64,000 bases of DNA from sequence record KP869102. One strand, given 5' to 3'. Both the position numbers and the translations under genes were made by a program. Positions 1,588 to 26,305 of this stretch are shown here, in pieces. Position 1 is the first letter of the stretch, and each line of letters opens with the position of its first letter. The notes under the pieces were generated by a model. It was not told where the DNA came from, searched no databases, and worked only from the letters and a program-made list of their open reading frames with translations. Origin of the DNA: Escherichia coli O157 typing phage 4.

Positions 1588-1604
1588 CTTAAGGTCTCCT
1601 GATA

Positions 1605-2618: not shown

Positions 2619-2621
2619 GTA

Positions 2622-2876: not shown

Positions 2877-2952
2877 CTTGGCAGTCTCCTTAGTTATTTA
2901 AAAATCACCGATCTGTTTGTGTGAAGCATCTTATATCTAATCTTACTTCTTG

Positions 2953-7592: not shown

Positions 7593-7650
7593 AAAGTGTT
7601 CTCCTTAAAGGGGAGGCGGTTGTACTACCCCTCCCACTCTTTGTTAAACA

Positions 7651-9729
7651 TTAAAAAGGTGTTTCATCATCCTCAAAACCAGGAACATGGTCAGAGGACG
7701 GATCATCGTACTGGAGGTCTTCCTGCGTGTCAACAGGCTTAACAGTAGGAGTTACAACCTTATCAGCCACAACCTTACCCATAGGTGTTTCTACAACTGC
7801 ATGCTCCTGATCCTCAAACATAGCCTGAGGTCTCCAAACAACCTCCCCACCTTCTCCATCTGTAAACATTTGCATTTCTTTGTCCCAGTACCAATTACTG
7901 GCATCATGGAACTTACCTGTATGTGGGTCCATAACCAAAGTGTCTGCAATACCTAAAGTTTTTGCTGGACGGTTTTTAAGACCTACCAGTCGGACACGCC
8001 CACGAGAACGATCCACCATTTCTTCGGCCTCGACACCTATGACTACCCAACTCAACTGTTCAAGCCCAGCCGATCCTCGCAAATTCTCTTTTCGCACAGG
8101 ATACCAGAAAGGTAACGGGTTACCATCCTTGTCCTTAGGAGGCACAATCTCTGTACGTTTGAGGTGAGCGATCACCAAGATAAACACATTGAACTGCTTA
8201 CAAAACGCAGCCAGCTGGGTCATAGCCATGTCCAGTTCTTTTCGCTCATCCTTAACATTAAGCCCCGAAATTACCATGGACAGGTGATCCAGCACAATAT
8301 AACGGCAATGGTACAGGCAAACCATTTGCTTAAGCTTGGTAATCAACTCGTCCACCGGAATAGACCCGAAATGTTTGAACACTTTGATTTTTCCAGCTTT
8401 TGCCCATGATTGGTGAATCTCTGCGTGTTCTTGATCAGTTAAAAACTGGCTAGGATCTTCAACAAACTCTTTAACATCAAACCCTAGCTGGTTTGCATAC
8501 AAGGAGTTAATTGCTTCCTCTGGGTCCTCCTCAAGATGGATCATGCATAGACGATCATCCTCTTCATAGTCATCGGCCTTCGGGCATGTCGGGTCCATCA
8601 AGTATCTTGCAATACAATGTTCCAGTTTTTTAGCTACAGTTGTTTTACCGCCCCCTGATGGCCCTGTAAGCATTACGAGTGTCCCTTTGTGCAAGCCTTT
8701 TAGCATTTTTTGCAGTTTTGGAAACTCTGCGCTGATATCTACCCCGTTGGAAGTCTTTTTCCGCAAAGATTCGATAGAGAAGTCTTCTAAATCCGACACA
8801 GCATCAGGCACATACTTAACAGGATGCCGGAACATGTTTACAATATCTTCCAGCTTTTTAGCCTTTAGCATGTCACGGATATCTTTTACACCGTCAGGAT
8901 CGTTTACCTCACCGGGGTATTCTACGTGGTAAACGTTATCAGCCATCAAAAATGCTGCGATATTGTGCGTGGCCTCAACACCTTTAATGACGTGTTTTTG
9001 CTTCTCTACCTCGTTAGCTGCATCGTTATCCATTGCCAGCACAACTGTTCCATAGCTACGGATAAACTTCTCATTGTTTGCAAAAGTATCTACTGCGTTT
9101 GCACATCCACAGTTAATTCCAACAAAAGGCAGGCATGGTTTTCCTGCCAGATCGCCACCGTTGATAACTGCATCGATCCCGTCCTGGACCTCTTTAGCCC
9201 ACTGTTTCACCTTTGCCGGGGCTTTAGCGTTGGTGAGAATCCCTTTTACTTGTATCTGATATGCAGCCTGCCATGCTGCAATAACATCACCTTCTCCCTC
9301 ACAAACGTTAATCTGCTTACGGTTGTTGGAAGATGCACACAGCTTTTGACCAAACATCTGAGAGTTAGCCTTTACTATGCCAACAACGGAGAAATGGCCT
9401 CTTTGCTCTTTAGGAATCGTCCAGTCACGCTTTTTGAAACCGGACAGATTTCCGTAGCGGTCGTAATATGGGAAATATGTTGCAGTGACTGTCACACCAT
9501 CTTCTTGGGATAATGCTGATCGCACACCAAAATATTGTGCAGCCATCAGACCGATATTTTGTTGTGGGACAGGGACAATTTTAGTATTTTCTAAAACAGT
9601 CTCTACAGTTTCAACTTCTTTTTCATCACGATAGTCTCGTTTCACACTTCCCCCACTTTTATACTTAGTTGCTTTCGGGTTTGGCTCACCGAAACGGTTG
9701 TATGCAGATGCCATAAATTTACTTCCCAT
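7651..9729 (-). CDS. bifunctional primase-helicase (T7 gp4-like: TOPRIM primase + DnaB-family helicase)
   Basis: 692 aa; TOPRIM VCEGEGD and MDNDAANE; Walker A TGPSGGGKT; Walker B IVLDHLSMV; acidic C-terminal tail ending in Phe. Confidence 0.9.
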   Translation of the reverse strand: MGSKFMASAYNRFGEPNPKATKYKSGGSVKRDYRDEKEVETVETVLENTKIVPVPQQNIGLMAAQYFGVRSALSQEDGVTVTATYFPYYDRYGNLSGFKKRDWTIPKEQRGHFSVVGIVKANSQMFGQKLCASSNNRKQINVCEGEGDVIAAWQAAYQIQVKGILTNAKAPAKVKQWAKEVQDGIDAVINGGDLAGKPCLPFVGINCGCANAVDTFANNEKFIRSYGTVVLAMDNDAANEVEKQKHVIKGVEATHNIAAFLMADNVYHVEYPGEVNDPDGVKDIRDMLKAKKLEDIVNMFRHPVKYVPDAVSDLEDFSIESLRKKTSNGVDISAEFPKLQKMLKGLHKGTLVMLTGPSGGGKTTVAKKLEHCIARYLMDPTCPKADDYEEDDRLCMIHLEEDPEEAINSLYANQLGFDVKEFVEDPSQFLTDQEHAEIHQSWAKAGKIKVFKHFGSIPVDELITKLKQMVCLYHCRYIVLDHLSMVISGLNVKDERKELDMAMTQLAAFCKQFNVFILVIAHLKRTEIVPPKDKDGNPLPFWYPVRKENLRGSAGLEQLSWVVIGVEAEEMVDRSRGRVRLVGLKNRPAKTLGIADTLVMDPHTGKFHDASNWYWDKEMQMFTDGEGGEVVWRPQAMFEDQEHAVVETPMGKVVADKVVTPTVKPVDTQEDLQYDDPSSDHVPGFEDDETPF

Positions 9730-10513
9730 TAATTCTGCTCCTTACTACAGGCTCGTTTGCTAAGAATACGGCTTTTGCCCAGCCACGTGGTGTGAGGCTT
9801 CGAATCATCTTCGTTCTTGCACTCTTTCCACCCAGCTTGGCGTGTTGCATGGAATACCCGCTAACCACGTCAACTATTTGCGGGACAGGTTTTGTGGCCG
9901 GGATTATAAATCCATTACCTATCCAGCCGCAAGTTATTTTTGGATAGGCATCACGTGGAGCTATAAATTCAGGAAACCATGGGTTTACATCATCTTCCGG
10001 TAAATACCCGCCATAGTCAGAAGGATGAAAACGGTAATCAGGTTTGCGCCACAGTGTGGACATAACACCTACAGGATTCTCTACATGCCACGGGCAATCG
10101 TAAATCTCTCCCAGCTCTTCCGCAACCCGAGCATCCCTTACAGCATTAATTTGGATCATGGGGTCCTTAGCCAGCTTTTTCTTAAAATGTGCAGCACCTG
10201 ATACCGCTAAATGCGTGCACGGAGGAAATGCAAGAATAAAGTCTGGAGCTGGGTACATGCAAAAAGTTTCCTGAGGGAACCATGGGTCAATCCAATAATC
10301 CACATAGTGAATGTTGGGATGATCGGTTATCACCTCTGCATAACTGCCGTGATCAGCACCTTCTGCATTAAAGCACAGGCACAGATACCCAGCTTTTGCC
10401 CAGTCAATGACTGCACCACCAGATCCGTCAAATAGGCTCCACACAACACCTTTGTGGTAGTGTTCTTTGTAGATAAATTTCAATTTGCTGTCTCCTAATG
10501 CAAAAAGCCCCAC
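9719..10513 (-). CDS. short C5-cytosine methyltransferase-like protein (no obvious target-recognition domain)
   Basis: Motif I-like LFDGSGG, motif IV-like FPPCTHLAVSG, motif VI-like ENPVGV; track start is GTG inside an upstream hairpin, TTG near 10483 with AGGAGA RBS is more likely. Confidence 0.6.
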   Translation of the reverse strand: MGLFALGDSKLKFIYKEHYHKGVVWSLFDGSGGAVIDWAKAGYLCLCFNAEGADHGSYAEVITDHPNIHYVDYWIDPWFPQETFCMYPAPDFILAFPPCTHLAVSGAAHFKKKLAKDPMIQINAVRDARVAEELGEIYDCPWHVENPVGVMSTLWRKPDYRFHPSDYGGYLPEDDVNPWFPEFIAPRDAYPKITCGWIGNGFIIPATKPVPQIVDVVSGYSMQHAKLGGKSARTKMIRSLTPRGWAKAVFLANEPVVRSRINGK

Positions 10514-10534
10514 CCTTTCGGGCAGGGCCTAGTG

Positions 10535-11017
10535 TTAAACCCGGATACCTATTGTATACTCGGTGGATACCAATGTCAAATCTAAATTTAAAATTTCTTG
10601 CATCTCATAATATGCGTCCAGGGTGAGATACATTTCCCCATCCTTTTCTACATACTTGTCCAAGTGCTTGAGGCATTTCGGATAACTATCGAGTGCAGCT
10701 TTCAGACACTCAAACTCTGTGCTGTTGATGAGTCCTTCCATCTTGGCTACCCGTTCTGGGGTAACGATAGCACTGTAGTGAGATTTAGCTTCCTGAATGC
10801 AATGGGTCCAAGCATCAACTTTCTCTTCGAAAAGCCCGAAGAATTTCTTTTTGGTGAGCTTCAGATTCTTTAAGTGCTTAAGCACTCGGTTGCCGATCAC
10901 AGCCACATCACGAAACTTAAGGATCACTTTGTCGATATCCTCGCGGCCTATTTTCACAAAGCAAGCCTCACACATTTCAGGAGCTGCGTAACCTACTTTC
11001 CACATAAAATCTGACAT
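10535..11017 (-). CDS. hypothetical protein
   Basis: ORF track 160 aa. Confidence 0.5.
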   Translation of the reverse strand: MSDFMWKVGYAAPEMCEACFVKIGREDIDKVILKFRDVAVIGNRVLKHLKNLKLTKKKFFGLFEEKVDAWTHCIQEAKSHYSAIVTPERVAKMEGLINSTEFECLKAALDSYPKCLKHLDKYVEKDGEMYLTLDAYYEMQEILNLDLTLVSTEYTIGIRV

Positions 11018-11029
11018 AACACTATCTCC

Positions 11030-11428
11030 TTATTCTTCCTGAAAAGCAACGATATCATATGAACTTGCAGACGATCCTGGTGAAGAATGACTCCAGTCTA
11101 GGTCATCAGAGTAGTCAGCGTACTGTGCACCACTACGTAGTTTATATTTTACCCACTTACCTGGTGCAGGGTTTTCACCACCTTCCCATACTTCCCAGCC
11201 TTCTGGCAGGCCGTCCTGGGAATAGTCATCCACCTCACTAATAATCTTAGGGTTTGGCACCAAGATCCCTGCAGGCTCTTCCTTCCGGATAAGTGTCCAC
11301 ACAACGTAGGTGTCTGAGCAGGCGCATGATAGCAAAGTATATCCACTATTCAGAACTTCTGCAAGCTCTTTTTCAGCATCTTCCAATTTGGTTAAGTGGT
11401 ATTGGAGAATCTTCACACCTGTAATCAT
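11030..11428 (-). CDS. hypothetical protein
   Basis: ORF track 132 aa. Confidence 0.5.
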   Translation of the reverse strand: MITGVKILQYHLTKLEDAEKELAEVLNSGYTLLSCACSDTYVVWTLIRKEEPAGILVPNPKIISEVDDYSQDGLPEGWEVWEGGENPAPGKWVKYKLRSGAQYADYSDDLDWSHSSPGSSASSYDIVAFQEE

Positions 11429-11772
11429 CAGAAACCTCCCACTTCTTCGGCAAATGCAGCTGCTGTCGTCGCTGCATCCAGATAGGACTCTAGTTCACGG
11501 GCTGCACGTTTGTAAATTGAGTGGCGAATATCGTTTGGCAGTTGGTGGAAGTCCACCTCTTCACCGTTGTGGTAAACATGCACATCAGTGATCTGTCTAA
11601 ATCCGTAATAGTCAACATCAGAATCACGGCACTCCGGGTCTGGCAACTGGACAACTGCCTGAGCTTCTACAGTGAACATATCGTCAAGTTCGAAATCGAT
11701 TTCAAAAGTGTATGGTTTATAACGTTTCATCATTTGATTGTACTCTTTATTGATCAGACTTATCTTTCGCAA
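11428..11772 (-). CDS. hypothetical protein
   Basis: ORF track 114 aa. Confidence 0.5.
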   Translation of the reverse strand: MRKISLINKEYNQMMKRYKPYTFEIDFELDDMFTVEAQAVVQLPDPECRDSDVDYYGFRQITDVHVYHNGEEVDFHQLPNDIRHSIYKRAARELESYLDAATTAAAFAEEVGGF

Positions 11773-13072
11773 TTAAGGTCGGGGCAAGTTTGTAATAACG
11801 GAAGCCACCACCACCTTGCCAGTTTACAGACTTAGAAATACCACCTTGATCTTCCCCATCGATCACTTTTTCCAAGCGCGGAATAATATGGGTATGGCAA
11901 TGATCACCAATCTCGATGGAGATCCAACGTCTTTTCATCTTGTGAGCTACAGCGGCAGTAGTTCCCGAACCACCGAATGAATCCAATACCAAATCACCTT
12001 CTCGCGTACACATTTCGAAAATCCGCTTCAAAAGCGCTTCTGGTTTTTTCCCATTTTTGAAACTAACGCCGCCTTCATTTGCTATTCCATTCCAACTAAT
12101 GTCTGTCCAAACATCAGTTATTAGTTCCGCAGGTTGCATATCACCGTCAATTTCCAAAAGCCTGTTGGAGTAAAAGACCATTTGCCTACCATTTGCGATA
12201 TAAAATCCTTCAACATCCTCATTTGGATGTACATAAACCTTATCCCTATCTTTCTTTGACTTCTCTATAGTTTCTTTTCTCTTTATTTTAGCACCACCAC
12301 CAATTGCAACAGATTGAAATACACGTTCTGCATTATCAATTGCAAATTGTGCTAATTCATCATCGAATGTGTCAGGCAGTTTTTTCTTGGCTTCTTTTGC
12401 ATCTTTATAGCCATTGGCCTTTGCAAACGCATCGGCAATACCGCACCACGTCCAATTTTTATAATGATCATCCGGGTTTAATAGGTATTTGTTATATCCG
12501 GTATCATACCCTTTAGGTATATAGATTTTGTTAAGCGGTTTCTGGGTGCGATCTTTTGCATATACAAGCAAAAAGTTTGCTGTGGAGAAAACTGTGGCTC
12601 CTGTTGCCTTAAATCCCGAAGGGGAATTTGTGGTCATCGATATGGTATTTAACTGATTTGCACGACCAAAAATCTCGTCCATCAAAACTTTTAAATACGC
12701 CATTTCGCAATCATCTAAGTGAACGAATATTACCCCGTCATCACTTAGAAGATTACGAATTATTTCTAACCTATCCCTCATTAAGCCCAACCAAATGGAA
12801 TGCTCCAGACTATCATCGTAGTGCTCAAAAGCCCTCCCGGTGTTGAATGGTGGGTCTATGTAAACACACTTCACTTTGCCTGCGTACTCTTGCTCTAGCG
12901 CCTTCAATGCTAATAAGTTATCTCCAAAAATCAGCTTATTATCAAAAATATCGTTTTCGGTAACTCTCTGGCTGTGGTAAGACTTACTCGAATCTTCTAA
13001 CAAAATGTGCGGCTCTAATTTTTTGCGCTCGTTTTTACCTATCCAGGTAAGTTCTAATTTGGTTTTGCTCAT
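11747..13072 (-). CDS. DNA amino-methyltransferase (N6-adenine or N4-cytosine), beta-class motif order
   Basis: 441 aa; motif IV VYIDPPFNTG near N-terminus, motif I DSFGGSGTT near C-terminus. Confidence 0.8.
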   Translation of the reverse strand: MSKTKLELTWIGKNERKKLEPHILLEDSSKSYHSQRVTENDIFDNKLIFGDNLLALKALEQEYAGKVKCVYIDPPFNTGRAFEHYDDSLEHSIWLGLMRDRLEIIRNLLSDDGVIFVHLDDCEMAYLKVLMDEIFGRANQLNTISMTTNSPSGFKATGATVFSTANFLLVYAKDRTQKPLNKIYIPKGYDTGYNKYLLNPDDHYKNWTWCGIADAFAKANGYKDAKEAKKKLPDTFDDELAQFAIDNAERVFQSVAIGGGAKIKRKETIEKSKKDRDKVYVHPNEDVEGFYIANGRQMVFYSNRLLEIDGDMQPAELITDVWTDISWNGIANEGGVSFKNGKKPEALLKRIFEMCTREGDLVLDSFGGSGTTAAVAHKMKRRWISIEIGDHCHTHIIPRLEKVIDGEDQGGISKSVNWQGGGGFRYYKLAPTLIAKDKSDQ

Positions 13073-13133
13073 CGTTTGGTGCTCTCCTTAGTTTTTTGTG
13101 GGGAGGAGGCCTCCCCTTTATACTCACATCTTA

Positions 13134-13475
13134 CTACTCAAGGTCTTCAGAGTCAAGCTCAAAAAGAATCAAACTGTGCATGCCTGCAGAGAGATCAACA
13201 CACCCTGCAACAATAAGGGTCTGATAGTAAGGTTCAGCACCCTCGATGTCTTCGTTAAAATCCACAACAAGGTAGTCACCTTTGTTAAAGGTGTATTTGT
13301 CCGATGTGAATGCAAAACCTGCCCAGTCCCCTACTGCAGGATCTTTATCAGTCACCTTTGTTAGCAGTAGATCTTTTTCACGAGATCTTTTAGTAAAATC
13401 GTGAATCACAACATCCTTCTCTTCAGGAGTTGGATTGCCACACACGTAGTTAACGATATTTCTCCACAAACTCAT
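13134..13475 (-). CDS. hypothetical protein
   Basis: ORF track 113 aa. Confidence 0.5.
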   Translation of the reverse strand: MSLWRNIVNYVCGNPTPEEKDVVIHDFTKRSREKDLLLTKVTDKDPAVGDWAGFAFTSDKYTFNKGDYLVVDFNEDIEGAEPYYQTLIVAGCVDLSAGMHSLILFELDSEDLE

Positions 13476-14842
13476 ACGTCCCCCTCTTCGGCTCTGGTTT
13501 CAAAATCTTTCCTGACAATTTTGTCTAAGTCAGGGAATGTTGTATTGTAAAACTCTACGACTCGCGGGTCAACAATAATGTCAACTTCTCTTAGTGGACG
13601 CAACAAGTTTATTCCTTGTATTGTCTTAACTCTGCTCAAAGCGACATACGTCATCCCAGGAGAGAAAGCTCCGTTCTTTCCAAGGTCTAGGTTGTAACAA
13701 TCTAGCGTAAGTCCTTGACTTTTATGAGATGTTACGGCGTACCCAGATTTCAGAGGAAGTTGCTTGTATGACCCAATCACTACCCTCTCTATAAACTTCT
13801 CCATCTTCCTTTCTGCAATGTTGTATCTCTGAGATGGCTTATACTCGTTATTCTCCCACAACCTCTGCTCTATGTCAACCTGTGTTCCATCTTCAAGCTC
13901 TACCACCACCGCCTTGTTCTTAAATTTAACAATTGTGGCACGTGTTCCGTTAACATAATAAGGTACTTTGTGCGTCGGGTCAACATCGTTGGCGGTTATC
14001 ATAACTTTCATGCCAATTTTCAACTTCATCTCCTGCTCAACTGGCAGGGTGGAGGGAAACTTACCCTTCATTTCCCCAGTGTATACCTTCTCCGGGGCGT
14101 TGATGGCATCATAGAACCTTCTGTTCACTTCCTCTGCTTGTTTGTTGGTGGCGCAAATTGTGAGAGCGTCTGTTGGTACACCGCCTTTGTAACAGCGAGC
14201 ATTAAGTTCTGCTACAACCTCTTTTATGCGACGACCCTCACGAACACAGTTGAGCATTGTGGCAAATCGAATAGACTCCTGTCGGAACTGATCTATTAGG
14301 GCTATGTTGTGGAGGTCAAGCTCTTTCCAAGATTCGGTATAGCAACACAGGTCTGTATGGTAGAAGTTGAAGTAGGCTTCCTTCTCCATAGAAGAGACAA
14401 CAGGAGGTGCCTGGTAAAAATCGCCAAACAATATGACCTGTATGCCTCCGAAAGGTTTGTCATTTTTTCGAAGGAAGCGAAGTTTCCTATCCATCTCTAT
14501 AAACTTATCAGCACGGATCATAGAGATTTCATCGATAATCAGGATGGTAAATGCCTTGCTTTTCAAAGGCTTTGCTGTTTTTGCCCTTATTGCGGTCCAG
14601 TCTGACTCCATGCTCACACCTGCTGCAAGATCGAAGGTTCGGTGTGCTGTTGCTCCATTAACGTTTAAAGCGGCTACCCCTGTCGGGGCAACCGTTATGC
14701 AAGAGTCTCCATACATTGACTGGATCATGTTGATGAGGTACGTCTTCCCACAACCTGCGGGTCCTGAAACGAAGACATTCTCACCGCTCATGATTGCAAC
14801 GAGGGCAGCATCTGTGCCTACATCATACTGCCCTTTTTCCAT
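13472..14842 (-). CDS. SF1 DNA helicase, Dda/Pif1/RecD-like
   Basis: 456 aa; Walker A GPAGCGKT; IIDEISMI; C-terminal YAVTSHKSQGLTLD. Confidence 0.85.
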   Translation of the reverse strand: MEKGQYDVGTDAALVAIMSGENVFVSGPAGCGKTYLINMIQSMYGDSCITVAPTGVAALNVNGATAHRTFDLAAGVSMESDWTAIRAKTAKPLKSKAFTILIIDEISMIRADKFIEMDRKLRFLRKNDKPFGGIQVILFGDFYQAPPVVSSMEKEAYFNFYHTDLCCYTESWKELDLHNIALIDQFRQESIRFATMLNCVREGRRIKEVVAELNARCYKGGVPTDALTICATNKQAEEVNRRFYDAINAPEKVYTGEMKGKFPSTLPVEQEMKLKIGMKVMITANDVDPTHKVPYYVNGTRATIVKFKNKAVVVELEDGTQVDIEQRLWENNEYKPSQRYNIAERKMEKFIERVVIGSYKQLPLKSGYAVTSHKSQGLTLDCYNLDLGKNGAFSPGMTYVALSRVKTIQGINLLRPLREVDIIVDPRVVEFYNTTFPDLDKIVRKDFETRAEEGDV

Positions 14843-16047
14843 TACGCCTCCTCGTAAAGAATGTCGATAGTGTTACCGTCTCGGTCAACCACGTATTCAA
14901 TCGGGTCTCCGTCCTTGCGTGCTTCCGGAGCTACCACAATCTCATAGCGGCATGCACGGCACTTAGCGCTATTGTGTTGGTATGGCACACTAACCACATC
15001 TGCAGGGTCAACCATGACAGTCATTACAGTGCCGTAGCTCTTCGCATACTCTTTGCTGGCGCAGTGTAAGCCATAGGAGCACGCAGCTTCAGGATCATCC
15101 TCTACAAAGTTACGAGGCATGGATACAAAAGCACCTTGGTATTGTGGGACTTTACCACTGTGCCAATCCACCCACTTGCTACCGTTAAACTGAACCCCTT
15201 TGTAGCAAATGATTCGACCATCTTCTGCAATCTGAATATCATTGGCCTGCATAAAATCGTAGAGCATGTTTACAGATTTTGCAGAAGGATTGCGTAGCAG
15301 GCGAACGAGGAATTTCACATAGCGGTCATCCAGCGTTCCGTCTGCATAATCTTTCTCAATTTTCTTTGCAATGGTGGATCGCATCTCTACACCGTAGTAG
15401 TAGAGCTTACCATCTTTCATGATCAGGTTGTCTGCAAGTGTGGTGAACTCATTCTTGCGTTCCAGCCAGACAAGGATTTCACCAATTGCCTCGTCATATT
15501 CCTGAACAGAGATATGGTCGAAGACTTTCTGGTAAACTTCCTCACTTTCGCTGCGGCGAATTTCAAAAATGCCTTCGTTGCAGGTGATCTGGAGGAGTTC
15601 CCCACAAATAACTACCAAAGGCTCGATGCTTCGAGTTTGTTGCTGAGACACACTGCTCACCACCTCCAGCACCGGATCTTTGACTTCTACTAAAGGTTCT
15701 TCTGACTTGATTGCCACCCCAGTGAACCCCACACCGTGAACAACACACAGTGGGTATACCACGCCCCAACGTTTAACGGAACCTTCGCCTAAGTCTAAGA
15801 TCATGGCGTACTTACCATTATCTTCCAATCCATAGCGGAATAAACGGGCCTCTTCGCGGGTTTCAAAATCCTCACGGGTGTAGCAGACGCTGTCACGGTC
15901 AGGATCGAACAACTCTGGGGCACCCACTGCCAGTGTCCAGGTTGTGTCGCCTTTCTCAATGGCACATGTGAAACCCTTCTTCTCAAGTTCTGCACGGCGG
16001 TCTCGTGCTTCTTTACGGGTTTTGAAATGTTCGTAGATGAAAATCAT
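14842..16047 (-). CDS. hypothetical protein, putative rIIB-like (by position next to rIIA-like gene)
   Basis: 401 aa; ATG with AAGGAGA RBS; the contig overlap places it directly downstream of the rIIA-like gene; no diagnostic motif. Confidence 0.5.
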   Translation of the reverse strand: MIFIYEHFKTRKEARDRRAELEKKGFTCAIEKGDTTWTLAVGAPELFDPDRDSVCYTREDFETREEARLFRYGLEDNGKYAMILDLGEGSVKRWGVVYPLCVVHGVGFTGVAIKSEEPLVEVKDPVLEVVSSVSQQQTRSIEPLVVICGELLQITCNEGIFEIRRSESEEVYQKVFDHISVQEYDEAIGEILVWLERKNEFTTLADNLIMKDGKLYYYGVEMRSTIAKKIEKDYADGTLDDRYVKFLVRLLRNPSAKSVNMLYDFMQANDIQIAEDGRIICYKGVQFNGSKWVDWHSGKVPQYQGAFVSMPRNFVEDDPEAACSYGLHCASKEYAKSYGTVMTVMVDPADVVSVPYQHNSAKCRACRYEIVVAPEARKDGDPIEYVVDRDGNTIDILYEEA

Positions 16048-16120
16048 CTTGGTCTCCTTATTTGATGTTATTCTTTGTATCGATCAGTTCACGGTATTCA
16101 ATCATAGCAGGAGTGTCCCA

Positions 16121-16130
16121 NNNNNNNNNN
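16121..16130. other. assembly gap (N10)
   Basis: Run of 10 N. Confidence 0.95.
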
Positions 16131-16440
16131 CTCAATGGTGACTACGTGCAGTGTTTTAGCCACGCCCAGTGGGTCGTCTACCTTAAACCCGCGATCCAGG
16201 ATGATCTGCAACGCATTGATGCTATGCCCCGTTTCCACACCGATAGGGTCGTAAGAGGATTTACGCTTGCCACCGGAGCCTTGAGTGCCGTTCTCTGCCT
16301 TAGGGGGATAGGCTTTGAAACCACTGATAATGTTTCCGGTGTCTTTGTCAACAATGGCTGCAACACGACCACCTACCACCAGATCTTTAAGCTGCTCATC
16401 GGTGACAACCATAGCACCTTCGCCAATCTTGTGGTCATTG
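16131..16440. repeat. 310-bp near-identical copy of window 21-330 (synonymous variant contig)
   Basis: By-eye alignment: about 6-7 substitutions; track translation of 16098-16454 (-) is identical to my translation of 21-330 (-). Confidence 0.85.
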
Positions 16441-16450
16441 NNNNNNNNNN
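16441..16450. other. assembly gap (N10)
   Basis: Run of 10 N. Confidence 0.95.
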
Positions 16451-16605
16451 GCACGATTGCATACCTTTGACAGATAATCTCATTACAGAGCGTTTAAGAG
16501 CTTCCTACAAACAAATCTCTCTTTCGAGCGTAGCGAGAACGCACGTCCGTTTTGACCCAAATCACCATACGCTCGGATTTTAACCAAACCCTCGCGGCGT
16601 TTCTA

Positions 16606-16634
16606 TTGACACATTACCGCTCCAGTGATAATAT
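16606..16634 (+). promoter_or_regulatory. sigma70-type promoter (TTGACA-17-TAATAT)
   Basis: -35 TTGACA at 16606-16611, 17-nt spacer, -10 TAATAT at 16629-16634; ATG at 16667 follows. Confidence 0.5.
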
Positions 16635-16666
16635 CCACACATAGTTTGTAGAATATGGGGTACACT

Positions 16667-16756
16667 ATGAGAACATTGTCCGAAGTTTTGGTGGTGATCC
16701 TGATGATCATTACGTCCATAGCGGCTGTTGCCGGAATACTCACGGGTGGAACATGA
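16667..16756 (+). CDS. hypothetical 29-aa hydrophobic micropeptide
   Basis: Manual ORF MRTLSEVLVVILMIITSIAAVAGILTGGT just downstream of the promoter; weak RBS. Confidence 0.35.
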   Translation: MRTLSEVLVVILMIITSIAAVAGILTGGT

Positions 16757-16965
16757 TAAACACACATGCATCTGAAGAGACATCCAAAGGAGTGACTATA
16801 TGTCCCTTGGCTGAGCCAGTGAAAGAGGAAAACTTCGATTCTGAAGATTCTCCATCTTCGCTCCAGGTAGATCCTGAGGCTGATGACCTAACGTGGGAAG
16901 ACATCGTAGATATCTGGTTCTCTATTATGCCTGAGCACGAAGAGTTCAGGGGTGGTAGACTATGA
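16753..16965 (+). CDS. hypothetical acidic protein
   Basis: ORF track 70 aa; same strand as promoter; no clear RBS. Confidence 0.3.
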   Translation: MINTHASEETSKGVTICPLAEPVKEENFDSEDSPSSLQVDPEADDLTWEDIVDIWFSIMPEHEEFRGGRL

Positions 16966-17086
16966 AGCACCGAGCCCACACAGGTTCCTCATGCTAAAGC
17001 ATGGCCTGAAGAGGCAAACGTGCATAATTCCTGTACATTGGGACGTATAAAACCCTGTTCACATTCTCATTTCCAGAGGAGATTTC

Positions 17087-17302
17087 ATGAAGATAGAAAT
17101 ATTTGGTGGAGCTGACAATACTCGTGGCCTGATTTACCTTGAATTCGATGAATCATACCTGCCAGAGGTGTTAAATATGGACTCTGTTGCTGATGCTTTG
17201 GGAGTAAGTCCTAAAGATCTCTACTCTGGTGCTGAGATTGATGGTTGGGAGGAGACCATGAACATTGATTTCAGTGAAGTAGGTGATGAACCACTGGACT
17301 GA
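17087..17302 (+). CDS. hypothetical acidic protein
   Basis: ORF track 71 aa; RBS AGGAGA upstream of ATG. Confidence 0.5.
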   Translation: MKIEIFGGADNTRGLIYLEFDESYLPEVLNMDSVADALGVSPKDLYSGAEIDGWEETMNIDFSEVGDEPLD

Positions 17303-18142
17303 CACACAATTAGCTACCCGGCTAAAGTGCTGGGAGCACCTATAACACATCTTTCAACTAAATTTCCTACCACCACAATCACTTACCTCCCACACATGAC
17401 TGTTTGCTTGTTTAGTGAGCAGTCATGCCTTGACATTCTTGCCTATCCTGATAAAATTAAGTTCTTCTCTTTTCTTTTACCGAGTAATTCGGGTTTTCTG
17501 TTCTCTTCGGTTTGAAGGGGTATGGAGATACACCTGAGTGAACAGGGTGAACAACCGAACATTTGGCTATGGCATTAGCATGGCGAAGCGGACGGGTGAC
17601 GAAAGAGGGGCCGGAGGACACCAGTCACTGCCATATGGTATATGGGTGATAACCTGAAGAGTCTGAATAAGTGTTTAAGTACCAGTCAGAGGAAAAGGTG
17701 AATGGTAGCCGAAGGGGGAGGGGGGTTTCTTGTATCTTTAATTTGTATATTATGTATACACTTGTAAACCAATCTCATTTGAATTTGTTTACCACACAAA
17801 GTGGATAGAGACAAATATTACCTATTAAACTTGAATTATTTATAGAAAATACCACAACACTACTTAAGTCTTTGATTTTACACACAAATCCTGCAGATAT
17901 TCACCCTCCATATTTAACATACTTGTAACATATTCCATACTCTACCTGCCCGATCAATTCACCCAACTACATCCCCATATTTTCCCTGTCTGTACTACCC
18001 CTGCCCCGCCGGGAGTCCCGTCATATCTGGCTTTCCAGCAAATATCACACCCACAAATATCATTGCCTGAAGAGGGTTTCGTCCCATAATACATGCCTTA
18101 CCTGAAGAGCGCTTCATATACCCCGTAAATTTTTTAATTGAC

Positions 18143-18172
18143 CCCCTCCCCGCCGCCGGAGGGGTCGGCTTT
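18143..18172 (+). terminator. possible intrinsic terminator hairpin (weak T-run)
   Basis: Stem CCCCTCC/GGAGGGG with loop CCGCCGCC followed by TCGGCTTTTCC. Confidence 0.25.
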
Positions 18173-18719
18173 TCCCACACAGACCTGAAGAGTCAGCCAG
18201 AAATATCTGAATGGACCCAATTCTGCCCTGTTATGAGCCGTAGCGACTGGAGTGCTGCCAGGCGGACGAAATGGGAATACTTCTCATTCTTATAACAATT
18301 CTCAAATATCGAGGCAGTGAGGCAAATTAATAGGTAAGGCCGTTCACATAGTGGCACAACATTTGCAGTCTATCTGATGTGGTTGAATGAGAATACCTAT
18401 CATTGTGAGAATAGTTATCATTACGGGCAATTTAACATAATACCCATTATGCGCACCACTGGCGATACATACAGGGATTGATAACATGAGTTACTGTTTA
18501 CGCATATAACAATTATATTTCTTATCATTTGTGTGGGATATAGTTAGCAGCCGATAGATTAGATATTGACCTGCGGACTTCTGACCGTCTAGACGTCTAA
18601 ACGCCCACACAACAAGGCTTATACATACATCGCTGAATGTAAACATGGCCGCAAAAATGCTACCATACAAGATTGTAAATTTTTCATGCAGCACTTGACA
18701 AAGAGGAGAAAAACTTGTC

Positions 18720-18762
18720 TGACACTTTAGACATACTGGTGACACAATATGACACTTTAGAC
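18720..18762. repeat. direct repeat, 2 x TGACACTTTAGAC
   Basis: Identical 13-mers at 18720-18732 and 18750-18762. Confidence 0.8.
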
Positions 18763-18779
18763 TTAATTGACATGCCTGA

Positions 18780-18956
18780 CTGTTTACGCTGTCACTATTC
18801 GCGCTATTACTATTCACTCCCTTTACTGTTCACGCTCTTACTGTTTACATGCTTAATGGTTTACATGCTTAATAGACTGCATGTCTAATAGTTTACATAG
18901 CTAACTGTTCACATACTTATCATTTACATGATTGACTGTTTACACAGAGATGATAA
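18780..18956. repeat. iteron-like array of TGTTTAC(A) motifs, including a tandem 16-bp unit
   Basis: (C)TGTTTAC at 18782, 18843, 18859, 18891, 18948 plus variants CATTTACAT, CTGTTCACAT, CTTTACTG; GTTTACATGCTTAATG twice in tandem at 18843-18874. Confidence 0.75.
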
Positions 18957-18963
18957 GCCATGA

Positions 18964-19234
18964 CATTCGTTTGCATGACAATAATTAACAAGATAACAAT
19001 TGACAAGCTAACAGCCAACAAGCTGACAATTAACTTGTTTACAATAGATGACATAATATAAAAGCAGGGCAACTATTAGAAGATCTATAGTTGCCTTGCT
19101 TGTTATGTCATGATTAACTAAATACAAGGCAACTATGATCTGATTAATAGTTTGCAAACAAACTATCACGGGGGTGATGGTTACTGCTTTTATATTATGT
19201 CGCGACTCCGTCGCGCCATGCCATTCGTTTGCAT
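18964..19234. repeat. 13-bp direct repeats CATTCGTTTGCAT bracketing the palindromic element
   Basis: Copies at 18964-18976 and 19222-19234. Confidence 0.8.
19050..19201. repeat. 152-bp element bounded by perfect 18-bp inverted repeats with nested palindromes (MITE-like or cruciform-forming)
   Basis: GACATAATATAAAAGCAG at 19050-19067 is the exact reverse complement of 19184-19201; internal inverted copies of AGGCAACTAT/ATAGTTGCCT and palindrome ATAGTTTG..CAAACTAT. Confidence 0.75.
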
Positions 19235-19850
19235 AGTTGCCTTATTGTTACAGATAAAATAATTGTATTGTTAATTATTTCTTATCTTTCTATTAGTCAT
19301 CTAATGATTCCAGTCAATATAGTAATGTACAGTAAACATTAGACGACTAAAGATTTATCTGCTTATAATAACTTACCGTGACAATTTCGGACTGTTTACG
19401 AAAAATGTTGGCACCTAAGCTGATTTATGTTATGCAGTTTACACGAATAATTATTTTATGCAGGTATTGACTATTCCATTATTCTATGGTTGGAATAAAT
19501 ACTTAGCAGACTATAGAATGGTGAGCGTACGTAAATTCTGAGATCTGGCGGCTATAGTTATACTCGATTTTTCACGTAGAGCACGCTTTTGTGGTTATGT
19601 AAGTGTATGACTTATAAAGATTTTTAGTTGTTGACAAGACACTGAAGATATGCATCAGGTTAAATTTTGTGCAATAGCTGCATTACGTGCAATTTTGGAA
19701 GGAAAAACGGGTAAAAATAGCCCTGCTACCACACAATGAAAAGTTATGCAATAGTTATTTTACATGTATATTTGTACAGTGTGTGGGGTTGATGGCTCGT
19801 CAATTATTCCACTTGCCAGGTAGGGCCGTTTATGGTAGGGGGAAGATCAG

Positions 19851-19876
19851 ACAAAAAGAAAGGGGCCTAAGCCCCT
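19851..19876 (-). terminator. intrinsic terminator
   Basis: Hairpin AGGGGC-CTAA-GCCCCT preceded on plus strand by an A-run (U-run on minus transcript), just downstream of the 19896 gene end. Confidence 0.55.
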
Positions 19877-19895
19877 TGATAATTCAGTTAAAAAA

Positions 19896-20315
19896 TTATA
19901 ATGATTCGTATATTTCAAAAATCCGATTTGCCAGGTCGTTACGGTACCGGAATTTTTCATCACGTTTGATCATAAGATCTTTATAGCCGTACTCTTTAAG
20001 CACTTCATTAACTTTATGGCGGCACACCTTCATATTATCCTGAGCGTCACCAATAAACCTGTTGCTATGGTGCATGGCTTTAATTTCTTCTTCCAGGACC
20101 AGGGCAACTATGCGGACCGGATCAAGCTGATAGGCGGTAACATCAATGCGGCATTGTAAACGGCTTTTTACGTCTGCCACCGGATATACTGCAACCTCTT
20201 CCCCGTCAACATTGACAATAATTAGTTTACCATCGATTTCGAATCCTTTCGCCGCCGGACCGTGACAAAAAGCGTTATCAAAGCTATATGCCGGATTATT
20301 AGATTTAATGTTCAT
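19896..20315 (-). CDS. hypothetical protein
   Basis: ORF track 139 aa; RBS GAGGTAAAAACACC before ATG. Confidence 0.5.
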   Translation of the reverse strand: MNIKSNNPAYSFDNAFCHGPAAKGFEIDGKLIIVNVDGEEVAVYPVADVKSRLQCRIDVTAYQLDPVRIVALVLEEEIKAMHHSNRFIGDAQDNMKVCRHKVNEVLKEYGYKDLMIKRDEKFRYRNDLANRIFEIYESL

Positions 20316-20354
20316 GGTGTTTTTACCTCTTAGTTAATTTTCTTACAACTTCCC

Positions 20355-20383
20355 TTTAAAAAAGAATATAGCAAAACTGCCGA
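20355..20383 (-). promoter_or_regulatory. sigma70-type promoter (TTGACA-17-TATATT on minus strand)
   Basis: Reverse complement gives TTGACA, 17-nt spacer, TATATT upstream of the 20315 start. Confidence 0.45.
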
Positions 20384-20460
20384 TCCTTGTCAATAAGGAT
20401 AGCATAATTTTTATGTGATCAAGGGGCTTTATTGCCCCCCTGACCATGTAACTTGTTGTA

Positions 20461-20724
20461 TTATTTGTTATTCATCCAGTTTTCCCAAGCTGCCTGATAA
20501 TCTGCTTCACTGCGGCGGATCTCTTCTTGCTCTTCAAGTCGGATCTCTTCTTCCAGGTACCCCAGGATATCGGCTTTTTTGGTCTGGCGTAACATCCAAT
20601 CATCTTTTTTACGGGTAAAGATCTTATATGCTTTCTCGCAAACCTCTTTTTTGCTACCTTTTTGGACTTCAAGAACTTTGTAGGCCATGTACTGAACTAG
20701 TTTGAGCTGATCAAGACGTTTCAT
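20461..20724 (-). CDS. hypothetical protein
   Basis: ORF track 87 aa; RBS AGAGGT; preferred over the overlapping 20472-20672 frame. Confidence 0.5.
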   Translation of the reverse strand: MKRLDQLKLVQYMAYKVLEVQKGSKKEVCEKAYKIFTRKKDDWMLRQTKKADILGYLEEEIRLEEQEEIRRSEADYQAAWENWMNNK

Positions 20725-20784
20725 GATGTTTACCTCTTTATGCGGTTCTGATTAGTGGGCCTTTTGGCCCGTGTCATTATCTTA

Positions 20785-21057
20785 TTACTTATGGCGGCAG
20801 AATTCAAGCGTTTTTAATTGATAATCTTCCTCAGCCTGGAGTACGACCGCCTCGATCATTTCGTTGGCATTGTTAAAGCCATAACCTTTAGCGAAATCAT
20901 CCGCGCCACCTTCGTGATCATGTTCTGCGTTCATCGCTTCCACAAAATGGAATTCCAAATTGTTGAGGTAGGGGCTTGATGTTCCGTCCTCTTTTTCGAT
21001 GAGATCCCAAATAGCATTAAAACGTGATTCTACTTCTTGATTAATCCAGCTTGACAC
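20785..21057 (-). CDS. hypothetical protein
   Basis: ORF track 90 aa. Confidence 0.5.
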   Translation of the reverse strand: MSSWINQEVESRFNAIWDLIEKEDGTSSPYLNNLEFHFVEAMNAEHDHEGGADDFAKGYGFNNANEMIEAVVLQAEEDYQLKTLEFCRHK

Positions 21058-21268
21058 AGTGTTTTCCTCTCTTCTGGTTGTTGTGTGGGCACTTTTGCCC
21101 CTTCAAGATAAATGTTACCCCACCCCATGGCAGATGTCAACGGTTTTTATAGTTCTTATATGACAGGCAGGCCCGGTGATTGTCTCCCCCCGTCGCCAGG
21201 TGCCTGCCGTGAAACAAGTATAACAAAAAACAGGACCATTGCAAGCCCTGTTTTGTAGTTTATAAATA

Positions 21269-21460
21269 TTATATTTTTTCGCCTATGTAGTCCGGTCGGT
21301 TTTTCTCTGTCATGCGCTTTAGCAATTCTTGCATGTTGCTTATGGCTTGTAGTGTATCCCCTTCCAGGCTTGAATCGACATAATCAGGATCGTCTATGAC
21401 CTTTCTATGATTATGATAACGCAGTACCGCCAATACCTTTCTGACTTGTTCGATATTCAT
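21269..21460 (-). CDS. hypothetical protein
   Basis: ORF track 63 aa. Confidence 0.45.
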   Translation of the reverse strand: MNIEQVRKVLAVLRYHNHRKVIDDPDYVDSSLEGDTLQAISNMQELLKRMTEKNRPDYIGEKI

Positions 21461-21472
21461 TTTTACCGCTCT

Positions 21473-21607
21473 TTAAAACAAGGTGCCAACCGTTTCCAAT
21501 AGATCACTGACTGCCAGGACAATACCGATCAGCACATATCTAACCATAAGGGGAAAGAGCGCCAATATTGCCACCACAATCCCCAAGGTGATAATTATCT
21601 TTCTCAT
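21473..21607 (-). CDS. hypothetical 44-aa membrane peptide
   Basis: Manual ORF MRKIIITLGIVVAILALFPLMVRYVLIGIVLAVSDLLETVGTLF; below the track length cutoff; abuts the upstream gene. Confidence 0.35.
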   Translation of the reverse strand: MRKIIITLGIVVAILALFPLMVRYVLIGIVLAVSDLLETVGTLF

Positions 21608-21609
21608 GG

Positions 21610-21903
21610 TTAACGGTTCACGTAAGTTTTCCCGTTCACGGTTATGGGCAGATCCTCCAGGTCTGGATCTTCCTTAAGGTCGCGAGCAAGCTCACCGCAC
21701 CGGATACCCTCGAATCCGTAGTACTCTGTTGTGCCGTCCTTAAAAGTTTTAGCGGCAAGGCATAAGCGATAAGTAACCCCGATTTGATTGACGGCATGAA
21801 TATCCGTTAGATTAACCTCTTTTGCCAGCTCTTTAGCCATTACAGGCGCATTAAGTCCAACAACCAGGGCAACCACTGCGATCATCTTTTTCATTGTGTC
21901 CAT
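21610..21903 (-). CDS. hypothetical secreted protein (N-terminal signal peptide)
   Basis: 97 aa; N-terminus MKKMIAVVALVVGLNAPVMA. Confidence 0.55.
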   Translation of the reverse strand: MDTMKKMIAVVALVVGLNAPVMAKELAKEVNLTDIHAVNQIGVTYRLCLAAKTFKDGTTEYYGFEGIRCGELARDLKEDPDLEDLPITVNGKTYVNR

Positions 21904-21985
21904 CCTCTTTCTGCTACGTTTAAGGCGGCGGTAACCGCCTGTTTATGCTTTGTTGGTTAATTTTCGGGTATAGGTATAAATTAAA

Positions 21986-22201
21986 CTATGCTGTACGCTC
22001 AACTATAACAACGGCTTGAGGGATCTCACCTTCAACCACTATCAAGGCTTTTTTCTGCGTGATAGATATCTTTACCCGCTTCAGCGTGGCGGTAAAATCT
22101 TTCATTTCGTCACGTGGTGTTTTAGTGCAATACCAGATCTCAGGCTTGCCGATCTGTAAGTTGCGTAAAAATTCTGTTTTGCCTGTTTTGTTAGTGATCA
22201 T
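21986..22201 (-). CDS. hypothetical protein
   Basis: ORF track 71 aa. Confidence 0.45.
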   Translation of the reverse strand: MITNKTGKTEFLRNLQIGKPEIWYCTKTPRDEMKDFTATLKRVKISITQKKALIVVEGEIPQAVVIVERTA

Positions 22202-22210
22202 TTGGCAACC

Positions 22211-22315
22211 TCACCCGATACCGTTGGAAGACAAGATCGCATTAGCCATGGTTGCAATCAGGCCAATACCCAGGGCAATAACCAAGATCACTGCATCGAT
22301 TAATTTCTGTTTCAT
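22211..22315 (-). CDS. hypothetical 34-aa membrane peptide
   Basis: Manual ORF MKQKLIDAVILVIALGIGLIATMANAILSSNGIG; weak RBS. Confidence 0.35.
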   Translation of the reverse strand: MKQKLIDAVILVIALGIGLIATMANAILSSNGIG

Positions 22316-22392
22316 GGTGTTTATTCTCTTCTGTTAGTAACCTTATTCATGGGGCCGCTACCACAGCCCCAAGGTAAGGCAGCTATGTGCTT

Positions 22393-22638
22393 TTAGTGTT
22401 TCATTCCAACCATCGCGGCACGGATCGCCGTAGTGCTGTACTTGAAGCCGTCCGGGGTCTTATCTTGTCCGGTTAGCTCCAGAAAAAGCATCATATCCCG
22501 CGCCGCATCATTACGATTAGCATTGGCGTTAATAAAGCCTTGGGCCAACCGGTACAATGACTCATCGTTATTAATCCAAAGGCTTACATTCCAATGAGTT
22601 TTGTTTTTGTAACCGTTATAACCTTTATTGCTTTTCAT
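22393..22638 (-). CDS. hypothetical protein
   Basis: ORF track 81 aa. Confidence 0.5.
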   Translation of the reverse strand: MKSNKGYNGYKNKTHWNVSLWINNDESLYRLAQGFINANANRNDAARDMMLFLELTGQDKTPDGFKYSTTAIRAAMVGMKH

Positions 22639-22729
22639 GGTGTTTACCTCTTCTTTGTTCCAGGTGGCGGATCATTCTACCACCTTATGTATTATGCTTT
22701 GTTAGATGGTTGTTTGTTGTCAAACTATT

Positions 22730-22909
22730 TTACCGATAATCATCATATGCTTTATTTACCTGGCGAATATAACATTCAAAAGCCAAATCAATAGATTTAT
22801 ATTCACGGATATACTCACCATAGGAAACCACATACATTTCTATAGCTTCCTCATATGCGAGGAGAATAGAATCTAAGCCTACGATCTCAGTCTTTGCAAT
22901 AATAGCCAT
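22730..22909 (-). CDS. hypothetical 59-aa protein
   Basis: Manual ORF MAIIAKTEIVGLDSILLAYEEAIEMYVV... with RBS AAGAGGA upstream. Confidence 0.45.
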   Translation of the reverse strand: MAIIAKTEIVGLDSILLAYEEAIEMYVVSYGEYIREYKSIDLAFECYIRQVNKAYDDYR

Positions 22910-22985
22910 GATTTTTTATCCTCTTTGTGGTTGGTGGGGTTCGTTGCCCCCTTTGATTTATATATTACAGTCTTATATGGTCATG

Positions 22986-23219
22986 TCAACTATTTTCAAA
23001 AAATTTTTCTGCTGTGATATTCTTCCCGGTAGGGTTCGCTACTTTCAAAATTTTATCATGCACTGGACGCCCAAAAGAATAAGCGCCGTACACAGTAAAC
23101 CAATAATCGCCGTCAGGTTGTACTATTACTGCCGCATATGGTACGCCTTTTTCGTTTTTGCTGACAAAATAGATCACGTTGCCATTAATAGCCTCGGCGC
23201 GTTTAATTTGTTCCATCAT
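22986..23219 (-). CDS. hypothetical protein
   Basis: ORF track 77 aa. Confidence 0.5.
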   Translation of the reverse strand: MMEQIKRAEAINGNVIYFVSKNEKGVPYAAVIVQPDGDYWFTVYGAYSFGRPVHDKILKVANPTGKNITAEKFFENS

Positions 23220-23275
23220 GATGATTTGCCTCTCTTTATTTTCATAATTGGGGGGCCTTTTCGGCCCCGCCAGGT

Positions 23276-23626
23276 TTATTTATTGATAGCGTGCAGCGGG
23301 AAAGGTACGCCAGGTTGATAGATAACCTTTACAACCTCATCAGGACAAAAGAAGTTGCAGAACTCACCGCAATAGGCCTCATCCTCTTTCAACTCTTCAT
23401 CAACATACTCAAAAAAGTAGTCGATGCTTGGATAATCTTGACCAGGGTTATAATCAACCATAGTGAGGACCAGTTCAAGATCATTGCGGATGATATGCAT
23501 ACCAGCTTTTAAATACTTCGCTTCCATTTTTACTACATCGCCAGCGGTAACAATAGCCATGGTTTTAACTCCTGTTTCTGTTAATGATTGGAGGCATAAC
23601 CCCCCTCGACAACTCTTATTATCCAT
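23276..23626 (-). CDS. hypothetical protein
   Basis: ORF track 116 aa. Confidence 0.5.
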   Translation of the reverse strand: MDNKSCRGGLCLQSLTETGVKTMAIVTAGDVVKMEAKYLKAGMHIIRNDLELVLTMVDYNPGQDYPSIDYFFEYVDEELKEDEAYCGEFCNFFCPDEVVKVIYQPGVPFPLHAINK

Positions 23627-23785
23627 ATTGTAGGGCTTGATGCAAGTACTTCTTTAAAAAATTTTTAAGTGCCTTGGAGGCCGCTGTAACGCCAAAATAA
23701 TAAAGGCCATGCAACCGCATAGCCTTTATGTGATTATATCGCTGCAGGCCCTGCTAGGGGCCTTATTTTGCATCATTTGCCGGAA

Positions 23786-24094
23786 CTATACAGAGAAAAC
23801 ATCGTTCACAATAGCGATCACAATGCCGCCCACCTTGTCACGGTCAACAATGCACAAATCACCATAGATCATGTGGTAGTCTGGATGATCTTTCACGGAA
23901 TAGTCAATGAGCGTTTTCTTGTCGTCCAGCTTTGTAACTTCCATTCTCATAACGATATGAGAATCATCAAAGGCATTATTCCGAAAAGTCATAGCCTGAC
24001 CACCAGGGCACCCAGTGATCTCCACTTCCACACCGTCTACGATCTGACCATCAAAGAAATAAAGATTATTAGCCAGGATAAACATGTTTATCAC
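23786..24094 (-). CDS. hypothetical protein
   Basis: ORF track 102 aa. Confidence 0.5.
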   Translation of the reverse strand: MINMFILANNLYFFDGQIVDGVEVEITGCPGGQAMTFRNNAFDDSHIVMRMEVTKLDDKKTLIDYSVKDHPDYHMIYGDLCIVDRDKVGGIVIAIVNDVFSV

Positions 24095-24177
24095 TCCTTG
24101 TTAACTGCGTGTTATTTTACCACGATTAAAATTTACTTTACTGATGGCCCTGGCGTCAAGGCCATCTAAAAATAAAT

Positions 24178-24378
24178 TTACAGGCCTACAATCTCTTTGA
24201 TTCGTTTAACTGCTGCCTCAGCGCCTTGGGGGTAGAAATTATGGTAACCGATCACGCGAGTGATACTAATCGCAGTTTGATGATCTTCATAATAGCCCTT
24301 GAAGATTTCTTGACCGTCAATCAGCACGGCAATTTTTTCTTCTTTTTTGAAGTTAATAACGCGGATATTGTTGCTCAT
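24178..24378 (-). CDS. hypothetical protein
   Basis: ORF track 66 aa. Confidence 0.45.
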   Translation of the reverse strand: MSNNIRVINFKKEEKIAVLIDGQEIFKGYYEDHQTAISITRVIGYHNFYPQGAEAAVKRIKEIVGL

Positions 24379-24493
24379 TTTGTTTCTCCTTTCTGGTTTT
24401 TGTGTTGGTGGGGATTAGCTCCCCGTTGATTATTATTATCCATATTTCGGACCGGATTGCAACACCCCGGAAGAAAAATTTTTTGAAAAAGTT

Positions 24494-24517
24494 AGGCCCC
24501 CAGGGATCGGGGGCCGT
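24494..24517 (-). terminator. intrinsic terminator
   Basis: Hairpin GGCCCCC-AGGGATC-GGGGGCC preceded on plus strand by an A-rich run. Confidence 0.5.
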
Positions 24518-24519
24518 TA

Positions 24520-24639
24520 TCAGTTACTTACAGCGATAAAATACATCCCTACGCCTAACAATATTTCAAGGGCGATGATCTCAAGCCATACCATAACCCG
24601 GCGCACCTTATCGGTGCGGGGCTTATCCTTGGTTGTCAT
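24520..24639 (-). CDS. hypothetical 39-aa membrane peptide
   Basis: Manual ORF MTTKDKPRTDKVRRVMVWLEIIALEILLGVGMYFIAVSN; strong RBS AGGGGGAGA. Confidence 0.45.
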   Translation of the reverse strand: MTTKDKPRTDKVRRVMVWLEIIALEILLGVGMYFIAVSN

Positions 24640-24881
24640 CGTCTCCCCCTTTCATCCTGGTAGTAGTGACGTGGTTTACAATGGCCCCCAGGAGTACCAT
24701 CACCACGCACATCACAAGAAAAATTATCTCTGTCGTTGTTCGATCCATTGTTATAAAATTCCTTAAGATCAGGCCTGAAAATAAAGCGTTCGTTATTGAA
24801 TCCATCACGCCAGGCGGCTGGCTTCAAATCTTCATCAAAGGGATTAATTAACGTGGTATTATTTAAACGGCTGGCCCACAT
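24636..24881 (-). CDS. hypothetical low-complexity protein
   Basis: ATG at 24881 with GAGAGGAA RBS; preferred over the RBS-less overlapping frame 24623-24808. Confidence 0.4.
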   Translation of the reverse strand: MWASRLNNTTLINPFDEDLKPAAWRDGFNNERFIFRPDLKEFYNNGSNNDRDNFSCDVRGDGTPGGHCKPRHYYQDERGRR

Positions 24882-25263: not shown

Positions 25264-25294
25264 TAAGGCGGCAAATATGCCGCCTGTTACCTGA

Positions 25295-25675: not shown

Positions 25676-25766
25676 AATGTTTTCCTCTTTGTTTTGTGTG
25701 GGGCAAACGTCTTGCCCCCCCTTGAGTTTTAATATAGCAAGTTTTTAGATTATTGCAACACTTTAT

Positions 25767-26295: not shown

Positions 26296-26305
26296 NNNNN
26301 NNNNN
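26296..26305. other. assembly gap (N10)
   Basis: Run of 10 N. Confidence 0.95.

Follow-up and report, generated by a model that had tools for sequence, protein, structure and literature searches.

A 310-nt contig in the draft genome of Escherichia coli O157 typing phage 4 is very probably a leftover second allele of a single-copy gene

A 310-nt contig in the sequence record of Escherichia coli O157 typing phage 4 (KP869102) is an assembly redundancy, and not a feature of the genome or a second copy of a gene. With a probability of roughly 0.88, it represents the alternate allele of a single-copy gene that was left over and orphaned when a mixed phage stock was assembled. The outcome is an ordinary one and involves no new biology. 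An initial annotation of this DNA, made from the sequence alone, had proposed a co-assembled second strain or haplotype. This proposal was borne out by contig ends that are tied to variant positions with a 144-nt overlap, by a second branch point at 16120/26450, and by the presence of the second allele in the assembly of sequencing run SRR1391165.

Organization of the window and its relatives

The window, that is, the whole 64,000-nt stretch of DNA that was analyzed, is made up of four contigs free of N, with 10-N runs between them at 16121-16130, 16441-16450, and 26296-26305. Its layout is as follows.

1-16120: contig 1 (c1)
16121-16130, no strand: 10-N spacer between c1 and c2; no genomic adjacency is implied, and the contig order is not the genome order
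16131-16440, minus-strand frame: contig 2 (c2), the 310-nt piece
16441-16450, no strand: 10-N spacer between c2 and c3; no genomic adjacency is implied
16451-26295: contig 3 (c3)
26306-64000: contig 4 (c4)

All four contigs belong to an rV5-like E. coli myophage of the genus Vequintavirus, and the window is a draft. Matches to window 1-1300 were found in 115 phage records at 90 to 99.5% identity. Two relatives from IMG/VR are 93 to 95% identical, O157 typing phages 5 (KP869103) and 14 (KP869112) are about 95 to 97% identical, and the closest published relatives of c4 are about 96.7% identical. Sixteen unannotated records named "Campylobacter phage" (MG065635-MG065690, host given as Campylobacter jejuni) are 97 to 100% identical to E. 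coli Vequintavirus, and the host labels on these records are doubtful.

JES2013 was used as the reference in place of BP9, because the BP9 record (PP488543.1) looks chimeric or misassembled. This record is without 11.5 kb equivalent to window 3645-15186 (DNA polymerase, helicase, and others), and at approximately 125000-138295 it carries genes of the lambdoid-prophage type (integrase, exodeoxyribonuclease VIII, ea22, and replication proteins). In JES2013 coordinates, the contigs follow the order c3, about 9.2 kb that is absent from the window, c1, and c4. The order in the record is not that of the genome, and the 10-N spacers therefore mark no adjacency. We did not accept the 10-N gaps as genuine scaffold gaps from Velvet, since the order c1, c2, c3, c4 contradicts the genome order.

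The 310-nt piece and its counterpart in contig 1

The 310-nt piece corresponds to part of a conserved Vequintavirus gene at the start of the window. The start codon of this gene lies at window 893-891, its product has 408 aa in BP9, and the locus is in the middle of the coding sequence. The gene and the two versions of the locus are listed below.

3-893, minus strand: conserved Vequintavirus gene (phrog_4477), first 297 codons; its 3' end runs off the start of the window
21-330, minus strand: counterpart in c1 (allele A), aligned to c2 without gaps
165-330, minus strand: 166-nt variant patch with seven synonymous third-position sites
16131-16440, minus strand: orphan piece c2 (allele B), with 144 nt in common with c1 and then 166 nt with seven variants; approximately codons 189-291 of the phrog_4477 gene

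The gene falls into the family phrog_4477, in which function is unassigned, and its protein had no match in Pfam, NCBIfam, or the PDB. One depositor has labeled it a putative single-stranded DNA (ssDNA)-binding protein, a label to which our searches give no support. The protein, of about 408 aa, is conserved across the genus and contains a Gln-rich linker.

The initial annotation had reported a match between c2 and window 21-330 with about six or seven substitutions, every one of them synonymous. Ungapped alignment over all 310 nt fixed the number at exactly seven mismatches with no indels (BLAST E value, 1e-151). The mismatches lie at window positions 165, 195, 204, 273, 291, 294, and 330, which are positions 145, 175, 184, 253, 271, 274, and 310 of c2 and, for the c2 copy in window numbering, 16275, 16305, 16314, 16383, 16401, 16404, and 16440. 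Six of the differences are transitions and one is a transversion. A codon-position tally placed all seven at codon position 3, with V, V, T, D, K, P, and S left unchanged. Both copies are open in the minus-strand frame, where their 103-aa translations are identical; the remaining five frames contain stop codons or differ from copy to copy. Because c2 ends on the seventh change, codon 332-330 is incomplete there, and this change counts as synonymous only on condition that the two absent bases agree. These two bases do match in BP9 and in an independently assembled contig, SRR1391165_9 of the Logan collection, both of which carry the B allele. With the seventh codon read in this way, the claim that every change is synonymous was confirmed.

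Synonymous changes make up 24% of the possible single-base changes in 21-330. Against this expected fraction of 0.24, the chance that seven of seven random substitutions would be synonymous is approximately 5e-5 under uniform rates and 3e-4 given six transitions and one transversion. Among 16 related sequences, third positions account for 34 of the 39 variable sites in 21-330 and for 91 of the 104 in 1-893. These codon-position counts indicate strong purifying selection on the gene across the genus, which the all-synonymous difference between alleles A and B reflects; any two alleles of this gene would be expected to show such a difference. The initial annotation had placed the second haplotype under purifying selection. 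This holds for the whole gene and for the whole genus, but it is nothing special to this sample.

With either copy as the query, the locus was found to be single copy in all of the 115 related phage records. Allele A is 100% identical to the sequence of JES2013, Murica, C15, A12a, EdH4, and phiWec191, and allele B is 100% identical to that of BP9, C7, C9, and A112b. JES2013 carries the full A pattern. In 15 further loci from isolates and metagenomes, the full B pattern was present in five, and several were intermediates, such as that of ECML-10. Judged by these identities, both alleles are natural variants that already existed in Vequintavirus. Between c1 and BP9, the seven patch sites are the only differences in window 1-1500, and about 100 sites differ in window 1751-2750.

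The closest carrier of allele B was found by means of a rare 129-aa protein encoded in c1, which led to the Logan contig SRR1391165_9 (16,206 nt). Over window 1-5286 this contig departs from c1 at the seven patch sites and nowhere else, and it is 100% identical to c2. The identity to the window includes 1751-2750, the stretch in which BP9 diverges. Given this identity of the backbone, the B allele is therefore present in a sibling of this very phage rather than in a distant contaminant. From its coordinates, SRR1391165_9 can be calculated to end at window 15924, one base before a site that differs between c1 and JES2013. In a second run, SRR1391163, a 2.8-kb contig is identical to window 1579-4404.

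These comparisons bear on two readings in which c2 would not be an allele at all. It is very improbable that the genome truly contains two diverged copies, whether as a dispersed duplication or as a heterogeneous terminal repeat. Such a reading draws on the presence of two similar segments in one record and on nothing more. The relatives have one locus per record (115 of 115), and c2 has no unique flanking sequence; it is an internal, in-frame fragment of a coding sequence, with neither start nor stop, and it ends on variant positions. Terminal repeats are expected to be identical, and the copies here differ at seven sites in a segment that lies in mid-CDS. In addition, rV5, the founding member, has been described as circularly permuted (PMC3606486), and so a fixed terminal repeat is not expected. 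The dismissal of a terminal repeat in the initial annotation was thus sound, as was its dismissal of sequencing error. Apart from the small size of the contig, nothing favors a reading of the seven differences as errors of sequencing or assembly at low coverage; it is less probable still than two true copies and is already refuted. All seven changes are synonymous and at third positions (P, ~5e-5 to 3e-4), and both versions are exact alleles of independently sequenced phages, with c2 being 100% identical to four published phages as well as to the independent assembly.

Contig boundaries and the assembly of two alleles

The boundaries of c2 coincide with variant sites. The first base of the piece lies exactly 144 nt ahead of the first variant, and its last base is itself the last variant, giving 310 = 144 + 166, and c1 starts one base past a site that differs between JES2013 and SRR1391165_9. 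Ends set by variants, with a constant 144-nt overlap, recur at other contig junctions. Self-comparison of the window revealed that the last 145 nt of c1 are equal to the first 144 nt of c4 followed by a differing base, as given by the following two features.

15976-16120, minus strand: tail of c1, 144 nt identical to the head of c4 and then the variant base A at 16120
26306-26450, minus strand: head of c4, the same 144 nt (26306-26449) and then the variant base G at 26450

The polymorphism at 16120/26450 is nonsynonymous, with A specifying Trp and G specifying Arg near the C terminus of rIIA. The A (Trp) allele is carried by 11 of the 11 relatives examined and by JES2013, which matches window 15976-16120 at 100%. 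None of the public collections searched contained the exact rIIA Arg product, and IMG/VR, JGI metagenomes, and GTDB genomes gave no exact match to a 41-mer across the G allele at 26450. By these searches, the G (Arg) allele of c4 is private. The genes rIIA and rIIB straddle the junction and are adjacent in every relative, and c1 and c4 are colinear with JES2013 across it. The two contigs are therefore true neighbors that were left unmerged by the assembler.

The 144-nt signature is what a de Bruijn assembly run with k = 145 would leave on branching at polymorphic sites. For c2, the near-identity over its whole length, the lack of unique flanks, and the single-copy state of the locus in relatives all agree with a contig derived from one branch of an assembly bubble. 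A fully printed bubble branch would measure 454 nt, and it counts against this reading that c2 is without the 144-nt right flank and measures 310 nt. The missing flank can be explained only on the assumption that pieces were printed without their last k-1 bases, which accounts for all five visible boundaries.

An independent sign of k = 145 was found in the record of O157 typing phage 14 (KP869112.1), which contains N runs and ends with a 289-nt piece (2k-1) after 100 N. This piece, at 131664-131952, is a reverse-complement near-duplicate of positions 127432-127720 of the same record, with the sole mismatch falling exactly in the middle, at position 145 of 289. It is an orphan contig from a single-nucleotide polymorphism (SNP) bubble. 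The study that describes KP869112 assembled typing-phage stocks with VelvetOptimiser (Velvet) into 1 to 7 contigs (PMC4429339). The k range stated in that study is 90 to 120 rather than 145, which counts against the attribution (PMC4429339).

Taken as an orphaned allele, c2 very probably arose as follows. The sequenced stock of one rV5-like myophage would have held at least two nearly identical haplotypes, differing in the gene at 3-893 by a 166-nt patch with seven synonymous sites. A de Bruijn assembler run with k = 145 would have taken the allele A branch of the resulting bubble into the long contig and would have put out the allele B branch as an orphan contig of 310 nt. The contigs would then have been concatenated with 10-N spacers, out of genome order. 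The clustering of the differences in a patch with identical flanks points to a patch made by homologous recombination rather than to evenly spread divergence. In this scheme, we infer the type of assembler and its k, the recombination origin, and, from the structure of the assembly, the presence of both alleles in one read set.

The second allele may have entered the data in more than one way. It is possible, if rather unlikely, that the stock was genuinely polymorphic for a patch of 166 to ~300 nt, moved by homologous recombination or gene conversion from a JES2013/Murica-type phage into a BP9/SRR1391165-type backbone or in the reverse direction. Cross-library or laboratory contamination by a sibling stock sequenced alongside, with the same mechanism of assembly, is less probable and in our view improbable. 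Contamination would fit the occurrence of window-identical sequence in two runs, SRR1391165 (16.2-kb contig) and SRR1391163, where the small size of the contig (2.8 kb) suggests low coverage. It would also fit the consensus alleles, which are B in SRR1391165 and A in c1, in that A-type and B-type siblings may be separate stocks of one project. A low-level contaminant, however, would be expected to leave ragged fragments and not a piece bounded exactly by variant sites, and one of the two alleles at the branch point 16120/26450 is private and sits in a long contig.

The 310-nt piece can be compared with three known kinds of repeated or patchwise sequence. It resembles the unpopped bubble branches, or "haplotigs," of de Bruijn assemblies from polymorphic samples in being a near-duplicate without flanks, with a constant k-1 overlap, of a single-copy locus. 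The piece in KP869112 is a textbook SNP bubble of length 2k-1, from which c2 differs in that its right-hand k-1 flank is missing; for c2, moreover, the assembler and k are deduced rather than documented. The mosaic recombination patches of Vequintavirus likewise consist of a short A/B block with identical flanks, and allele combinations are shuffled among isolates. They differ from the present case, in which both variants of the patch occur in one assembly and the combination in c1 is matched by none of the 115 records. Phage terminal repeats or terminal redundancy also cause sequence from the start of a record to reappear within it, but c2 is not at the end of the record, is internal to a coding sequence, and differs from its counterpart at seven sites.

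Mosaic blocks and the path of contig 1

Comparison with JES2013 showed that differences are arranged in blocks. In c1, 36 differing sites fall in two blocks, at 481-1112 (24 sites) and 15601-15925 (12 sites), and in c3 all 47 differing sites lie within 16468-17393. The first 1.2 kb of c4 is identical to JES2013 except for the SNP at 26450, and identity over the aligning regions of c4 is about 95%. The blocks in c1 and c3 look like recombination patches, block-wise mosaicism being typical of these phages. JES2013 and SRR1391165_9 differ at 31 sites in a single block at 165-1112. Within this block, c1 carries JES2013 alleles at 165-330 and BP9/SRR1391165-like alleles at 481-1112, and the two parts are separated by one further feature.

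331-480, no strand: zone in which c1 switches type, 150 nt without JES2013/SRR1391165-type differences

No other invariant gap in block 165-1112 reaches 144 nt, the next largest being 87 nt. The sequence of c1 across 255-565 was found in none of the 115 phage records, the best match being 99.4%.

A switch of type at this place raises the question of whether c1 is itself a chimeric path through the assembly, with the JES side followed through the first bubble and the opposite side through the second, so that its A+P combination would occur in no phage. The stock would then have consisted of a JES2013-type haplotype (allele A with JES alleles at 481-1112) and an SRR1391165-type haplotype (allele B with BP9-like alleles). 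Both pure types exist, the switch falls in the only invariant gap that reaches 144 nt, the sequence across it is without a counterpart among the records, and the alternative allele at 16120 is the JES2013 allele. A chimeric c1 also predicts a complementary JES-type orphan for 481-1112, of about 776 nt, and no such piece is present in the 64-kb window; for this reason, we hold the reading only tentatively, at somewhat less than even odds. A full JES2013-type co-resident would furthermore be expected to give parallel contigs for the region of c4 that is about 95% identical, and there are none. Real recombinants within the patch do occur in nature, as intermediates like ECML-10 demonstrate.

The reading of c2 as an orphaned allele matters mainly for data hygiene. 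The record contains a redundant allele piece, a 144-nt overlap between c1 and c4 that was not collapsed, and possibly a main contig that switches haplotype. For annotation, repeat counts, phylogeny, and recombination analysis, c2 should be removed and c1 merged with c4, and the sites in 165-330 and at 16120/26450 should be treated as polymorphic. As to biology, the stock would be nonclonal (or cross-contaminated) and the gene at 3-893 changes almost entirely synonymously, both of which are expected for rV5-like phages. If the patch-exchange reading is true, the stock would have been sampled while mosaic exchange was under way in a conserved early gene.

Two further segments of the window were noted. 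A 726-nt segment at 6863-7588, between the DNA polymerase and helicase/primase genes, is shared with JES2013 but not with O157 typing phage 14. Its JES2013 counterpart carries the annotation putative HNH endonuclease (ORF211), and the segment was probably inserted as a mobile homing endonuclease. In c4, a 62-nt direct repeat (47575-47636 and 49633-49694, 82% identity) lies in a region that aligns to the structural/tail gene block of JES2013 and is probably an intragenic or paralogous motif.
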